64,000 nucleotides of DNA from Spirochaetia bacterium (GTDB lineage Bacteria > Spirochaetota > Spirochaetia > UBA9216), in contig CAXXYH010000004.1 in NCBI GenBank assembly GCA_963677925.2, positions 224,001 to 288,000 on the forward strand. Direction: 5' to 3'. This document shows, piece after piece, positions 46,789 to 50,756 of the stretch. The notes under the pieces are model-generated. The model searched no databases and was not told the origin of the DNA. It was given only the letters and a program-made list of their open reading frames with translations. Made by a program: the position numbers and the translations under genes. Each line of letters begins with the position of its first letter. The first letter of the stretch is position 1.

Positions 46789-46850
46789 TTGACATTATAT
46801 AGAACTTATTATATATTACTTAAAGCAAATGTTGCTAAGCGCAAATATTT
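46789..46850 (+). promoter_or_regulatory. Sigma70 promoter TTGACA-N17-TATATT followed by TTGC-N5-GCAA inverted repeat (candidate MarR operator)
   Basis: -35 at 46789-46794, -10 at 46812-46817, TTGCTAAGCGCAA at 46832-46844. Confidence 0.65.
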
Positions 46851-46864
46851 CATTATAATTACTA

Positions 46865-47272
46865 TTGGAGAGCATTTTGATCGACCAGATACTTGAGTTG
46901 AAAAAAAAGTGTAATTTCGACCGCGAAATAGGAGAGGCTTTAAACCTTAAGGATAAGGAAATCTCTGCCATCGCCGCCATTGCTGAATGCAGTGAACTTA
47001 CATCAAAAGAAGTATCAGATCAGATATCACTGTCACCCTCAAGAGGAAGCAGGGTGATAACCGGCCTTATGGAAAAGGGCCTTGTTGAACTAAACCACAA
47101 CAGTGACGACAGAAGGGTTATCAATATCACACTTACCCGGGCCGGAGAAGCATGCTACTTAAATATGGTGGAAGAAATAAAAAAATGCGAACGGCGCCTT
47201 ACAGAGAATCTTACTGAACAGGAAAAACTGATTATTTCAGAAGGCCTGCAGATATTACTTAAAACTATATAG
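46865..47272 (+). CDS. MarR-family regulator with four Cys
   Basis: Winged-helix LSPSRGSRVITGLMEKGLV and DDRR motif. The start may be TTG 46877, 6 nt after GGAG. Confidence 0.88.
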   Translation: MESILIDQILELKKKCNFDREIGEALNLKDKEISAIAAIAECSELTSKEVSDQISLSPSRGSRVITGLMEKGLVELNHNSDDRRVINITLTRAGEACYLNMVEEIKKCERRLTENLTEQEKLIISEGLQILLKTI

Positions 47273-47280
47273 GAGAGAAG

Positions 47281-47943
47281 ATGGCTGAGACAAAAACTTC
47301 AAACGCAATAAATATAAGGTATTCCGATCTGGCGGAAACAAGCTGCTGCCTTTCATGCGGCGGTGCCGTAAACCACAGCAAGGCTAAAACCGGTGAGGTA
47401 TGTGTAGACCTTGGAAGCGGAAGAGGTACCGACGTCCTCAGGCTTGCGGAAGATGTAGGGGAAACAGGGTTTGTATACGGCATCGATCTTTCAGACGGAA
47501 TGATCCGAAAGGCTGAAAAAACCGCAGAAAGGCTCGGTGTTAAAAACGTAAAATTTGAGCAGGCGGATCTTGAAGCTCTACCGGTTGAAGATTCTACAGT
47601 GAATCTGGTTATCTCAAACTGTGTAATAAATCATGCTGAAAACAAGCAGAATGTATGGAACGAAGTTTACAGAATTCTGAAAAAGGGCGGACGCTTTGTT
47701 GTAAGCGATATCTATTCGAGTGCACCAGTTCCTGAAGAATACAAGAATGATCCTGAAGCAGTTGCTGAGTGCTGGGCGGGTTCTGTAACCCGGGAAGTAT
47801 ACCTGAATCAGCTGGCAGCAGCAGGATTTAAGGATGTAGAGATTCTTGAAGAAAGCAATCCCTACCCCAAGGGCAAAATCGAAGTTAGCAGCTGGACCAT
47901 CCTGGGCAAAAAACCGGGTGGCTGCAGCTGTAACAATATTTAA
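47281..47943 (+). CDS. arsM: ArsM-like SAM-dependent (arsenite) methyltransferase
   Basis: DLGSGRG SAM motif. Cys motifs at ArsM-equivalent positions (LSCGG, ISNCVIN, ECWAG). LKKGGRFVVSD, extra N-terminal CC and C-terminal CSC. Confidence 0.72.
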   Translation: MAETKTSNAINIRYSDLAETSCCLSCGGAVNHSKAKTGEVCVDLGSGRGTDVLRLAEDVGETGFVYGIDLSDGMIRKAEKTAERLGVKNVKFEQADLEALPVEDSTVNLVISNCVINHAENKQNVWNEVYRILKKGGRFVVSDIYSSAPVPEEYKNDPEAVAECWAGSVTREVYLNQLAAAGFKDVEILEESNPYPKGKIEVSSWTILGKKPGGCSCNNI

Positions 47944-47954
47944 AGGAGTGGTAG

Positions 47955-48050
47955 ATGAAATCACTTATCAAGAAGAAACCGGAAGGCAAAAAAGAAGTAG
48001 CTCAGTGCTGCGCTAAGCTTTCCAAAGTTGTGGCCGGCTGCCACGATTAA
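47955..48050 (+). CDS. Unannotated 31-aa Cys-containing peptide MKSLIKKKPEGKKEVAQCCAKLSKVVAGCHD, putative radical SAM precursor
   Basis: AAGGAG Shine-Dalgarno at 47943-47948, 6 nt before the ATG. Fills the gap between the methyltransferase and the radical SAM gene. Lys-rich N-half, CC...C C-half. Confidence 0.82.
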   Translation: MKSLIKKKPEGKKEVAQCCAKLSKVVAGCHD

Positions 48051-48057
48051 TCCTTTA

Positions 48058-48088
48058 CCGGAACGGAGGGTTTAATCCTCCGTTCCGG
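48058..48088 (+). terminator. Perfect 12-bp hairpin after the peptide gene (mRNA stabiliser or leaky terminator)
   Basis: CCGGAACGGAGG pairs with CCTCCGTTCCGG. A T6 run lies 14 nt downstream. Confidence 0.7.
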
Positions 48089-48113
48089 ATCCTAACAGGG
48101 GCTTTTTTAATTT

Positions 48114-49436
48114 ATGGAATATACATTATCTAAACATAATATTATCGGGAAACTTGCGGACTCTGAAAACTGGTACATAGTAAATCCTTTAAGCAGAAAC
48201 GCCGACATAATTACTTCAGAAACTGCGGATACTTTGACCAATGGATCCTACACCAATGCAGATGAACTTCTGGAAAAGGGATATATCGTTGACGCGGCAG
48301 CAGAAGATAAGACATTCAAGGCTGAATACCTGAGTTTTATCGACAACCGTGAAACTGATGAAATTCAGATTTTTTATGTGCCGACCTACGCGTGCAATTT
48401 TGCATGTTCATACTGCTATCAGGAAGGTTATTCCCATGATAAGAATGAAAAGCCGCTGGAAGTAATCGACGCATTTTTCAGCTACATCGATAAGGAATTC
48501 GCCGGACGTAGAAAGTACATAACTGTTTTCGGCGGCGAACCGATGCTGCCGGACCCGCTGACCCGGGAAAAAATCGGTCATATAATCAAGAATGCCAATG
48601 ACAGAAATCTGTCTCTTGCATTTGTAACCAACGGCTATACGCTTGAATCCTACGTTCCAATGCTGCAGATGGCAAGCATACGGGAAGTACAGGTTACCCT
48701 TGACGGACCGGCTGAAGTGCATGATAAGCGCAGAATGCTAAGAGGCGGTAAGGGCACTTTCAGTGAAATTGCCGACGGAATAAATGCAGCGCTTAGAGCA
48801 GACATTCCTATAAACCTGAGGGCGGTAATAGACAGGGATAATCTTCCATCACTGCCGGCACTTGCAGAGTTTGCAGTATCACAGGGCTGGACTAATAACA
48901 AACTTTTTAAAACACAGCTTGGCCGAAATTATGAACTGCACTACTGCCAGGCTGATGAGAACAGGCTTTACGACAGACTGACGATGTATGCAGATCTGTA
49001 TGAGCTTATAAAGAAAAATCCGGTGATAATGCAGTTTCACCGTCCGGCATATTCGATTTCAAGATTTCTGTTTGACAACGGAGAGATGCCTGAACCGCTG
49101 TTTGACTCATGTCCGGGCTGTAAAACCGAGTGGGCCTTTGACTACACCGGTAACATTTATTCCTGCACAGCCACAGTAGGAAAGAGCGGTGAAGAACTTG
49201 GAACTTTTTATCCTTCAGTTACAAGGAAGGAAGAAATAATTGAAGAATGGCAGGAGCGCGATGTTACAGCAATAAGTGAATGCGCCGACTGTTCACTCAA
49301 GCTGGCATGCGGCGGAGGCTGTGCTTCCGTAGCAAAGAACAAATCCGGCAGGATTTGCTCCCCGGACTGCCGACCGGTAGACGGACTTTTATCATACGGA
49401 CTTTCACTTTACTTCGGAGAGGAAGCGGAAGCCTAA
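48114..49436 (+). CDS. Radical SAM/SPASM-domain protein, putative peptide maturase
   Basis: CNFACSYC, FGGEP, TNG, TLDG. The C-terminal SPASM region has 9 Cys including Cx2Cx5Cx3C. An ~85-aa N-terminal extension resembles an RRE. Confidence 0.92.
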   Translation: MEYTLSKHNIIGKLADSENWYIVNPLSRNADIITSETADTLTNGSYTNADELLEKGYIVDAAAEDKTFKAEYLSFIDNRETDEIQIFYVPTYACNFACSYCYQEGYSHDKNEKPLEVIDAFFSYIDKEFAGRRKYITVFGGEPMLPDPLTREKIGHIIKNANDRNLSLAFVTNGYTLESYVPMLQMASIREVQVTLDGPAEVHDKRRMLRGGKGTFSEIADGINAALRADIPINLRAVIDRDNLPSLPALAEFAVSQGWTNNKLFKTQLGRNYELHYCQADENRLYDRLTMYADLYELIKKNPVIMQFHRPAYSISRFLFDNGEMPEPLFDSCPGCKTEWAFDYTGNIYSCTATVGKSGEELGTFYPSVTRKEEIIEEWQERDVTAISECADCSLKLACGGGCASVAKNKSGRICSPDCRPVDGLLSYGLSLYFGEEAEA

Positions 49437-49472
49437 ATTTGAAAATAATTAACCACACTAAAGGAGTTGGAT

Positions 49473-50756
49473 ATGGCAGGAAAAATTAAAGAGATTCAGC
49501 AGGCGGATTTTGAGAATGAAGTACTTAAGGCAGATAAGGTAGTTGTTGATTTCTACTCAACCGAGTGTCCGCCCTGCGAGGCGCTTGCAGCAAAGTATGA
49601 AAGCCTCAGCATGATATACGGGGATGATATAAAATTCATCAAGATATTCCGTCAGGGAAACAGGGAGCTGGCACAGGAACTTGATATCAGCGGTTCACCT
49701 ACAGTTATATTCTATAATAACGGAGAGAGAACCGGAGCAACACTTACTGGCGGGATAAAAAGATCTGAGCTTATGGAAAACCTTGATGCTCTTCTTTCCG
49801 CAGAAAAAGTGGAAGAAATTCATTCAAAGATTACTCCCGTGGTTACCAACGCTGATGTTGTAATCCTCGGCGGCGGTCCTGCAGGTCTTACCGCTGGAGT
49901 ATATCTGGCTCAGGCTCATCTTAAAACGATACTCGTTGATACCGCACTTCCCGGAGGATACGTAGCAACTACACACCAGGTATCCAACTACCCCGGTTTC
50001 ATTGAACCGCAGCAGGGATTCATGCTCAGCCATTATATGAGCGAACAGGCAAAGGCAAACGGTGTTGAGTTCAGAAGTGCTGTTGAAGTAACAAAGGTCG
50101 ATCTTGCAAACAAGAGTATTCTTGTTGACGGATTTGAAACAATAGAAGCCAAAAAAGTTGTAATATCTACAGGCTCAAGACCAAGACCACTGGGAATCCC
50201 GGGCGAGAAGGAATACGCAGGTCAGGGAATCAGCTACTGTGCAACATGTGACGGAAAATACTTCGAAGGCAAAGAGATTGTCGTTATCGGCGGCGGAAAC
50301 TCAGCGATTGAGGAATCGCTCTTCCTCTCAAAATTCGCAAGTAAAATAACCATTGTTCACCAGTTCGATACTCTGCAGGCTAACAAGGAAGCTCAGCAGA
50401 AGATCTTTGATGACCCTAAGGTAAACATCATGTTTGAACATGAGCCGAGAGAGTTCAAGAAATACGGCAACATGGACATGGCTGTAGTAGTTGAGGATCT
50501 TAAAACCGGTGAAAAGAAAGAGGTCAAGACCAACGGTATATTCGTATTCGTAGGTTTTATACCAAATCTTGAAAGCTTCCATGACAAACTTGAGACAGAT
50601 CAGTGGGGATACCTGAAGACCAACGAAAACATGGAAACCAACATTCCCGGCGTTTTTGCAGTAGGCGATGTTAAAACAAAGGCATACCGCCAGATTACAA
50701 CAGCTGTTTCTGACGGAACAATTGCCGCAATTACAATATCAAAAGAACTTTCCTGA
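49473..50756 (+). CDS. trxB: Thioredoxin / thioredoxin reductase fusion
   Basis: N-terminal Trx fold with CPPC, then GGGPAG, NYPG, CATCDG, GGGNSA, HQFD and AVGDV. ATG 49473 follows AAGGAG. Confidence 0.88.
   Translation: MAGKIKEIQQADFENEVLKADKVVVDFYSTECPPCEALAAKYESLSMIYGDDIKFIKIFRQGNRELAQELDISGSPTVIFYNNGERTGATLTGGIKRSELMENLDALLSAEKVEEIHSKITPVVTNADVVILGGGPAGLTAGVYLAQAHLKTILVDTALPGGYVATTHQVSNYPGFIEPQQGFMLSHYMSEQAKANGVEFRSAVEVTKVDLANKSILVDGFETIEAKKVVISTGSRPRPLGIPGEKEYAGQGISYCATCDGKYFEGKEIVVIGGGNSAIEESLFLSKFASKITIVHQFDTLQANKEAQQKIFDDPKVNIMFEHEPREFKKYGNMDMAVVVEDLKTGEKKEVKTNGIFVFVGFIPNLESFHDKLETDQWGYLKTNENMETNIPGVFAVGDVKTKAYRQITTAVSDGTIAAITISKELS

Follow-up and report, generated by a model that had tools for sequence, protein, structure and literature searches.

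The genome of a Spirochaetia bacterium (assembly GCA_963677925.2) contains a gene cassette that, judged from sequences and structural models, appears to be a system for modifying a ribosomally made peptide by a radical S-adenosylmethionine (SAM) enzyme, with an unprecedented set of obligatory partners; the modification itself is predicted. The cassette is located in a 64,000-nucleotide stretch of contig CAXXYH010000004.1 (positions 224,001–288,000 of the forward strand), which is here called the window. The products of the cassette are a short methyltransferase of the ArsM type (MT), a small cysteine-containing peptide, a radical SAM/SPASM enzyme (rSAM), and a fusion of thioredoxin with thioredoxin reductase (Trx–TrxR), preceded in the window by a MarR-family regulator. 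No NCBIfam model (June 2026) scores above its cut-off for rSAM, the peptide, or MT. The gene set and the peptide motif are undescribed in the full-text literature searched, although the work of Haft on MbdU and "organometallic" loci may overlap with them. The statement of the initial annotation that it knew of no characterized pathway with this make-up therefore stands within these searches. The same annotation treated the peptide as a gene product and a possible substrate of the SPASM enzyme, and MT as ArsM-like; the 101 conserved peptide cores, the CteB-like fold of rSAM with its predicted peptide complex, and the cysteines and structural matches of MT described below support these assignments.

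The cassette recurs in about 100 loci, which were gathered through relatives of rSAM from four sources. Genome records provided four loci, including those of a Spirochaetia metagenome-assembled genome (MAG) with 96% identity and a Bacteroidales MAG with 61%. Among 61 relatives of the host genome, 20 have an rSAM match with an E-value of 1e-60 or better. Metagenomes contributed 80 loci, retained out of the 357 stretches with confirmed rSAM relatives among 594 candidates, and extra loci came from two phylum samples of 301 genomes each. Removal of duplicates (L001, L005, L008, and L116, which repeat L006, the window, L002, and L003, respectively) resulted in 108 rSAM-bearing loci; L106–L111 were left out, as they are not cassette loci. 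The loci are not independent, with L070 and L071 being near-identical and L015 and L017 being close relatives.

MT, the peptide, and the Trx–TrxR fusion all accompany rSAM, in identical order, in 66 of the 72 loci having both flanks. Of the 101 loci that extend at least 250 nucleotides upstream, tblastn detected the peptide in 98; the corresponding counts are 79 of 83 for MT and 91 of 93 for the fusion. By contrast, among the 73 loci that extend at least 450 nucleotides upstream of MT, 17 have the MarR gene. The conserved unit thus consists of four genes, because MT, the peptide, rSAM, and Trx–TrxR recur while MarR does not. MarR, which the initial annotation had counted as part of the system, is a lineage-specific accessory outside this core. 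The co-occurrence of MT, a short CC...GCHD open reading frame (ORF), and a Trx–TrxR fusion around rSAM homologues, expected in the same annotation, was found in the two-flank loci. Since the gene order recurs in about 100 loci, the cassette is syntenic in other genomes, and chance juxtaposition is ruled out.

Cassette loci come from Spirochaetota, Bacteroidota, and metagenomes. In the sample of 301 genomes from the phylum of the host, 31 have an rSAM match with an E-value of 1e-100 or better, whereas 3 of the 301 Bacteroidota genomes, sampled as the phylum of the Bacteroidales MAG, have one at 1e-90 or better. Four of the 31 genomes carry a divergent version of the cassette, clade B (L112–L115), in which the gene order and the peptide core are unchanged at identities of 37–39% for rSAM, 36–41% for MT, and 47–52% for Trx–TrxR. 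Three of the four clade B cassettes include a DUF5714 protein that matches the MbdU model NF045648 with 128.8 bits, relative to a cut-off of 600. Genome G192 has two copies of rSAM, each with 58% identity to the query, on the short contigs C91 and C92, which may represent a duplication or an assembly split.

The codon usage of the peptide identifies it as a real, strongly constrained gene. The core A-Q-C-C-[A/S]-K-x-[S/T]-x4-G-C-H-D-stop is present in all 101 cores extracted, which are encoded by 100 distinct DNA sequences. Residues A16, Q17, C18, C19, K21, G28, C29, H30, and D31 are unchanged over the 101 loci, with every synonymous codon in use, a pattern that rules out a spurious or non-coding short ORF. 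The N-terminus, MKS[LV][IV]KK, is also conserved, and it is joined to the core by a spacer of variable length and sequence, so that the peptides are 30–46 residues long. A conserved N-terminus, a variable spacer, and a fixed core together indicate a leader-plus-core anatomy. The near-invariance of the core is unlike that of antibiotic peptides that are made on ribosomes and then modified post-translationally (RiPPs), and by analogy resembles cofactor-like or SCIFF-like peptides. A selenocysteine form was sought, and all 101 cores use TGC or TGT for cysteine. The peptide matched no Pfam or NCBIfam model, and a Protein Atlas search with it returned only unnamed short-protein clusters with scores under 0.9. 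The variant peptide of L067 (at about 3800–3910), which escaped tblastn and is not one of the 101 cores, has Leu instead of Gln17 (ALCCAK) and is the sole exception at this position. In L084, the peptide is located at 331–426, and about 3.5 kb is inserted between it and the rSAM gene, whereas no peptide was found within the 755 nucleotides of sequence available in L056. The AQCCA motif is duplicated in L026 (3820–3915).

The radical SAM motif CxxxCxxC of rSAM (C94, C98, C101) and cysteines C333, C351, C390, C393, and C399 are present in 18 of 18 sequences, and C403 and C419 in 17 of 18. In alignment A1, C94, C98, and C101 are invariant in all 20 sequences, as is the SPASM array C333, C351 (G346-x4-C351), C390-x2-C393-x5-C399-x3-C403, and C419. 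The Pfam Radical_SAM model matches with 70.7 bits, and Fer4_12 was also matched. Pfam gave no SPASM-domain match at an E-value of 0.01 or better; however, the SPASM assignment is backed by full-length alignments to the CefB model (residues 6–437) and to the structure of CteB. The best NCBIfam scores are 132.1 bits for TIGR04463 (cut-off 525) and 131 for CefB (600), followed by 111.6 for PapB (340), 79 for the SCIFF model TIGR03974 (425), and 35 for TrsS (490). Membership in a named maturase family of NCBIfam (TIGR04463, CefB, PapB, SCIFF, Clo7bot, and others) was therefore rejected, since all scores are under the cut-offs.

The AlphaFold2 (AF2) model of rSAM has a mean predicted local distance difference test (pLDDT) score of 91.4. 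Its nearest solved relative is the thioether-forming CteB (5WGG), both in sequence (E-value 4e-27) and in fold (template modelling score 0.65), followed by anSME, SuiB, and ChlB. The modelled N-terminal domain (residues ~1–85) consists of three strands (10–13, 20–24, and 29–33) and helices ahead of the barrel, and is predicted to be a leader-binding domain resembling the RiPP recognition element (RRE). Models of the complex of rSAM with the peptide, calculated with three 4Fe–4S clusters and SAM, reached ipSAE values of 0.85, 0.86, and 0.85, compared with 0.02 for the best of three controls. In calibration, 58 of 80 solved complexes passed the mark applied, as did 2 of 110 mismatched pairs; the pass may nevertheless partly reflect likeness, because similar maturase–peptide complexes (CteB, SuiB, ChlB) are solved. 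The runs share at least 42% of contacts, and the pLDDT of the peptide is 47–54. Peptide residues 1–7 are modelled on enzyme residues 22–33 of the RRE-like domain, and residues 22–31 are positioned amid barrel and SPASM residues in the active site. The complex model supports binding of the peptide by rSAM. Among rSAM relatives with 32–43% identity, P0156 (792 residues) is fused to a full-length ArsM, and P0129 and P0130 (708 and 727 residues) are fused to a DUF5714/MbdU-like metal-binding domain.

By family, fold, and cysteine triad, MT is predicted to be an ArsM-like enzyme, and metalloid methylation would be its activity. It aligns with CmArsM (phmmer E-value 6e-23) such that Cys26, Cys114, and Cys164 correspond to Cys72, Cys174, and Cys224, equivalents that are invariant in 16 of 16 MTs including those of clade B. 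Cys22, Cys23, Cys26, Cys41, Cys114, and Cys164 are present in 20 of 20 orthologues. The AF2 model of MT (pLDDT 89.9) has CmArsM, CrArsM, and human AS3MT at Foldseek ranks 1–12 (TMq 0.72–0.78; 28–32% identity), and a search of the whole genome with NF008823 gave MT 199 bits. The protein has an SCC-x2-C motif near the N-terminus and a cysteine-containing C-terminal tail. Cys44 of CmArsM, the fourth conserved cysteine, is required for the first methylation of As(III). It has no aligned counterpart, as the alignment begins at chain residue 70; in the MTs of clade A, the pair Cys22–Cys23 precedes Cys26 by three to four residues (20 of 20). Clade B MTs lack this pair, and clade B peptides carry a second Cys-Cys. 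According to a review by the Rosen group (PMC6138428), whose numbering of the four CmArsM cysteines is used here, arsenic is bound by these cysteines, which also carry out a cascade of disulfide reactions; As(III) is preferentially donated by the glutathione conjugate As(GS)3, by thiol transfer, and thioredoxin was proposed to reduce the disulfides. In L071 (2520–3124) and L078 (2970–3505), MT is split into two overlapping or offset tblastn pieces, which suggests a frameshift or an assembly error.

The cysteine-rich tail of MT and a cysteine pair in the peptide spacer tend to replace each other. Among 90 loci, 56 have the tail only, 16 the spacer pair only, 16 neither, and 2 both. The raw Fisher p-value is 2.7e-7, but the association does not hold up once relatedness is corrected for: the spacer trait changed only three times on the tree, and an independent-pairs sign test gives p 0.25–0.5. 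Because about three evolutionary events underlie it, the alternation is kept as a hint only, and is weakly suggestive of cooperation between MT and the peptide.

The Trx–TrxR fusion contains CPPC at residues 34–37 (ECPPC, in the N-terminal thioredoxin) and CATC at 258–261 (in the reductase), in 19 of 19 orthologues. It matches Pfam Thioredoxin with 71.1 bits and Pyr_redox_2 with 193.5 bits, and its score for TIGR01292, 318 bits, is just under the cut-off of 343.45. The best matches in the PDB are thioredoxin reductases, and by sequence the reductase is an ordinary low-molecular-weight one. The fusion is the best-conserved protein of the cassette, with 66–85% identity compared to 55–71% for rSAM among the non-duplicate Spirochaete-type loci. 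At the position of HRRxxxR, which we take to be the NADPH-binding motif of thioredoxin reductases, all 19 orthologues have HQF[DA]xLQANK. The electron donor is therefore uncertain and may differ from NADPH.

Features of the cassette locus in the window (positions are those of the window).
Feature	Position	Strand	Evidence
Putative sigma-70-like promoter, TTGACA-17-TATATT	46789–46817	+	11/12 consensus positions
MarR-family regulator, 135 aa	46865–47272	+	Pfam MarR_2 PF12802, 28.8 bits (cut-off 27)
Short ArsM-type SAM methyltransferase (MT), 220 aa	47281–47943	+	NF008823, 199.9 bits; phmmer, Foldseek
Precursor-like peptide, 31 aa, MKSLIKKK-spacer-AQCCAKxSxxxxGCHD	47955–48050	+	AGGAG ribosome-binding site 7 nt upstream
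GC-rich hairpin, 14 bp, followed by U-rich stretch	48058–48088	+	-28 kcal/mol, z -4.6
Predicted radical SAM/SPASM peptide maturase (rSAM), 440 aa, with N-terminal RRE-like domain	48114–49436	+	Pfam Radical_SAM, Fer4_12
Trx–TrxR fusion, 429 aa	49467 (TTG) or 49473 (ATG)–50756	+	Pfam Thioredoxin, Pyr_redox_2

The ORFs of the five co-oriented genes are all present where the initial annotation placed them, and Pfam and NCBIfam confirmed their families. The gaps between the genes, reported as 8, 11, 63, and 36 nucleotides, are correct for the ATG codon of the fusion, which is likely its true start; with TTG, the last gap is 30 nucleotides. The cysteine motifs noted earlier in each of the five products hold up and are conserved among aligned orthologues, including MarR Cys16, Cys97, and Cys108, which are kept in 16 of 16. 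MarR reached no NCBIfam equivalog, and a search for its operator palindrome found nothing beyond a trivial AT palindrome. The near-consensus promoter survives as a match to the consensus, not as a site that stands out from its surroundings: a further promoter-like site (10/12) lies at 46832–46859, and the scanned region contains 9 such sites versus 8.3 ± 2.6 in shuffles. Its role as the operon promoter is only plausible, because the number of sites does not exceed that in shuffles.

The hairpin that follows the peptide gene folds better than any of 200 shuffled sequences. Hairpins of differing sequence, often with a T-run, are found after the stop codon in most Spirochaete-type loci, as judged by eye. 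The hairpin in the window probably acts as a partial terminator or an attenuator, thereby controlling the ratio of peptide to enzyme. The neighbouring genes in the window are unrelated to the cassette; they encode a PocR sensor kinase, an APH-like kinase, and an NYN protein upstream, and a transaldolase, SDR, GntR, and MFS proteins downstream, on the other strand. The first of these, a sensor histidine kinase with PocR and HisKA_2 domains at 45512–46711 (minus strand), is divergent from the promoter of the cassette. The window flanks of the cassette contain neither an exporter–peptidase pair nor an ars gene.

Genes around the cassette in other loci were surveyed in the 300 nearest of 326 flanking ORFs of at least 100 residues, as two batches of 150. 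The nearest 150 include 29 thioredoxins, 21 Zn_ribbon_IS1595 proteins, 17 DUF302, 12 AhpC/TSA, 8 rhodaneses, 6 DUF1847, 6 NifX-like proteins, and 3 TehB-like methyltransferases. In the next 150 there are 11 thioredoxins, 7 other methyltransferases, 6 NifX-like proteins, 5 pyridine-nucleotide disulfide oxidoreductases, 5 DUF134, and 4 DUF302. A canonical ars operon (ArsR with ArsB or Acr3, and usually ArsC) was considered and rejected, since no such genes occur in the window flanks or among the 25 most frequent flank families. The absence of an exporter, a peptidase, and arsB, acr3, or arsC noted in the initial annotation extends to these regions, in which none is dedicated to the cassette. Two small proteins recur near the cassette. 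In L052 (2401–2652, plus strand) and 22 other metagenome loci, an 83-residue protein with two predicted transmembrane helices is encoded just upstream of MT. A conserved GC-x2-G-x-C stands between its helices, with a C-terminal SPC..C; the protein matches nothing in Pfam or NCBIfam and, by analogy with small Mer-type transporters, could transport a thiophilic metal or metalloid. In L039 (33–470, minus strand) and 20 other loci, a 145-residue zinc-ribbon protein of the IS1595 transposase type is encoded divergently upstream where MarR is absent; it may be a domesticated regulator.

The known system most similar to the cassette is the CteB/CteA pair (SCIFF; PDB 5WGG/5WHY), as CteB is the best match of rSAM by sequence and by whole-length fold, including the N-terminal peptide-binding domain. 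Like SCIFF peptides, the peptide described here is short, cysteine-rich, highly conserved, and without a dedicated exporter or protease. The spacing from Cys18 to Ser/Thr23 equals that from Cys32 to Thr37 in CteA. However, rSAM has 17–18% sequence identity to CteB and scores far under the SCIFF cut-off, and the peptide belongs to no family. To our knowledge, obligatory ArsM-type methyltransferase and Trx–TrxR partners are not part of SCIFF loci. Among maturases of the ranthipeptide and QhpD type, which make thioethers from Cys to Asp or Glu, the model of PapB aligns with rSAM residues 91–415, and by analogy a Cys-to-Asp thioether at the Cys-His-Asp end of the core is conceivable. PapB substrates have C-x3-D spacing, whereas the motif here is C-x-D and unrepeated, and the PapB score is below its cut-off. 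Mycofactocin, a functional analogy only, is conserved, is not secreted, and arises when a radical SAM/SPASM enzyme works on the C-terminal end of a short peptide; however, its maturase model TIGR03962 gives rSAM 66 bits versus a cut-off of 265, and its partner genes are absent here.

MT shares with ArsM and AS3MT the fold and the equivalents of Cys72, Cys174, and Cys224, and a thioredoxin reductant is encoded within the cassette operon itself. It differs from them in its length of 220 residues, the missing C-terminal domain, a family score under the cut-off, the lack of an aligned Cys44, and its position outside an ars operon. In the arsinothricin (ArsL/ArsM) and arsenosugar (ArsS/ArsM) pathways, a radical SAM enzyme is likewise genetically paired with an ArsM-type methyltransferase. 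By contrast with rSAM, ArsL and ArsS act on arsenic and SAM fragments rather than on a ribosomal peptide and are not SPASM/RRE maturases, and the NCBIfam models of ArsMs from the two pathways give MT 115 and 83 bits, compared with cut-offs of 500 and 400, respectively. ArsD binds As(III) through a vicinal cysteine pair and a third cysteine, which is a functional analogy to the peptide only, as the peptide has no sequence relationship to ArsD. Several NCBIfam models of ArsM-like selenoprotein fusions match MT, with all scores far under the cut-offs. Together with the match of the clade B DUF5714 protein to the MbdU model, which is well below its cut-off, this is consistent by analogy with the cassette belonging, like the MbdU/MduS loci, among anaerobe gene sets that encode ArsM-like, metal-binding, and thioredoxin-like proteins; it differs from the selenoproteins of these loci in that the 101 peptide cores contain no selenocysteine codon. 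The selenoprotein neighbourhoods of MbdU/MduS (Haft and Tolstoy 2025) and the "organometallic" loci (Haft and Gwadz 2023) are tabulated in a 2026 review (PMC13188914).

The explanation that we favour, with a probability of roughly 0.4, is that the peptide matured by rSAM serves MT as a thiol partner in the handling of metalloids, together with Trx–TrxR. It starts from the synteny, the selection on the peptide, the families and folds of the enzymes, and the modelled interface, from which we infer that rSAM makes a thioether, that MT acts on a metalloid, and that the peptide is a carrier. The CteB-like rSAM would bind the MKSLIKK N-terminus of the peptide on its RRE-like domain and then modify the C-terminal core AQCCAK-x-S/T-x4-GCHD, most likely with at least one cysteine thioether cross-link; a thioether is the default expectation because the nearest relatives of rSAM make it. 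The matured peptide, still bearing thiols, would act inside the cell as the dedicated thiol partner of MT. It would pass a soft trivalent metalloid to MT, or hold the toxic methylated product, or both, in parallel to the role of As(GS)3 in classical ArsM. As(III) would be the likeliest metalloid, with Sb, Se, or Te also possible. The Trx–TrxR fusion would re-reduce the disulfides that arise from ArsM-type catalysis and keep the cysteines of the peptide reduced. The product is expected to stay intracellular because neither an exporter nor a peptidase was seen in about 100 loci. Points from sequence that support this explanation are the synteny in clade B at 37–39% rSAM identity and the fusions of rSAM relatives to ArsM and to DUF5714/MbdU. 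The search for glutathione synthesis in the host provides a further one: in the genome, which is 99.6% complete, the gshA model TIGR01434 matched nothing, and the gshB model TIGR01380 nothing above its cut-off.

Several observations weigh against the peptide being a thiol partner of a metalloid methyltransferase. We infer the link to arsenic solely from the family and the cysteines of MT, and MT lacks the ArsM C-terminal domain and has the 199.9 bits for the NCBIfam ArsM model NF008823 relative to a cut-off of 263, with the match covering profile positions 59–233 of 272. In neither flank batch do the 25 most frequent families include one for arsenic resistance, the flanking genes suit a role in thiol or sulfur redox chemistry at least as well, and the best Acr3-, ArsB-, and ArsC-like matches of the host are located on other contigs (C3, C1, and C3, respectively). 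A thioether would use up one of the three invariant cysteines and thereby weaken a three-thiol As(III) site. The search for glutathione synthesis consisted of two models, the score of the complex may reflect likeness to the solved CteB, SuiB, and ChlB complexes, and the tail–spacer alternation does not hold up once relatedness is corrected for. The methylarsenic-bound peptide and the metalloid chaperone suggested in the initial annotation remain hypothetical.

It is possible, though unlikely, that the peptide itself is the methyl acceptor, with RiPP tailoring that combines an rSAM cross-link with S-, N-, or O-methylation by a co-opted enzyme of ArsM fold. Trx–TrxR would then only keep the cysteines reduced, and the module would yield a signal, metallophore, or cofactor that stays in the cell and has nothing to do with metalloid methylation. 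The strict adjacency of MT, the peptide, and rSAM would suit such tailoring, as would the score of MT under the ArsM family cut-off and the way in which the cysteine-rich motif alternates between the tail of MT and the spacer of the peptide; the invariance of K21, S/T23, H30, and D31 besides the cysteines suggests recognition by more than one enzyme. However, plain peptide methylation should not need the ArsM cysteine triad, which is invariant even in clade B, the closest structures are all As(III) methyltransferases, and neither exporter nor leader peptidase was seen in about 100 loci. A unit for thiol redox chemistry or for defence against reactive sulfur or oxidants, in which the vicinal Cys-Cys of the peptide would be a redox cofactor or substrate recycled by Trx–TrxR, is a rather improbable alternative as well. 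Its inducer would act through a cysteine-sensing, OhrR-like MarR or another regulator, and MT would methylate sulfur or selenium species or cap a thiol. This alternative fits the accessory genes best, since thioredoxins, AhpC/TSA, DUF302, rhodaneses, YgaP-like transmembrane proteins, SQR-like flavoproteins, and Crp regulators are recurrent neighbours, and it agrees with the N-terminal Cys16 and with Cys97 and Cys108 of MarR in 16 of 16 orthologues, the highest conservation of the set in the fusion, and a distribution limited to anaerobe-type genomes and metagenomes. It leaves unexplained, however, the obligatory pairing of an rSAM maturase with an enzyme that has the ArsM cysteine triad, and the fusions of rSAM relatives to full-length ArsM or a metal-binding domain; the TehB-like methyltransferases among the nearest ORFs, named for tellurite resistance in Pfam, hint at metalloids instead.

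In two further explanations the metalloid would become part of the peptide. The peptide may be a scaffold on which thiol-held arsenic (or Sb, Se, or Te) is methylated by MT and fixed by the SPASM enzyme through a carbon–metalloid or thioether-bridged linkage; this is quite improbable, and, if true, ribosomal synthesis would for the first time be the source of an organometalloid peptide or cofactor, with a dedicated Trx–TrxR to recycle it. Still more doubtful is the formation of a carbon–metalloid bond by rSAM itself, in which a carbon radical of the peptide would attack cysteine-held, MT-methylated arsenic to give an organoarsenical peptide or cofactor of ribosomal origin, in analogy to ArsL and ArsS. 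ArsS pairs with ArsM in the arsenosugar pathway, the rSAM relative P0156 is fused to ArsM, and the complex model puts the core of the peptide in the active site, beside auxiliary-cluster cysteines. ArsM and a radical SAM enzyme are also paired in the arsinothricin pathway, according to 10.1101/2024.02.01.577332 and PMC8552651. On the other hand, rSAM is a SPASM maturase nearest to CteB, not to ArsL or ArsS, and genes for arsenic uptake or efflux are missing from the window flanks and from the top-25 flank families. We know of no carbon–metalloid chemistry among SPASM enzymes, which counts against such a bond.

The ArsM-like genes of anaerobes are routinely counted as arsenic-methylation potential. 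The best ArsM-like gene in the genomes studied here is tied into a module with a peptide, a radical SAM enzyme, and thioredoxin, and its chemistry may depart from that of textbook ArsM. The four-gene module is frequent in the samples described above, and it is compact (~3.5 kb) and therefore easily expressed. A role of the peptide as a dedicated thiol carrier would reveal the way in which anaerobes lacking glutathione supply and detoxify the methylation of metalloids; if the peptide itself is methylated or linked to a metalloid, it would represent a new class of ribosomal peptide products. Either way, a highly conserved SCIFF-like pair of a cysteine peptide and a SPASM enzyme gains a testable functional context, and the module may connect ribosomal peptide chemistry with the handling of metalloids.

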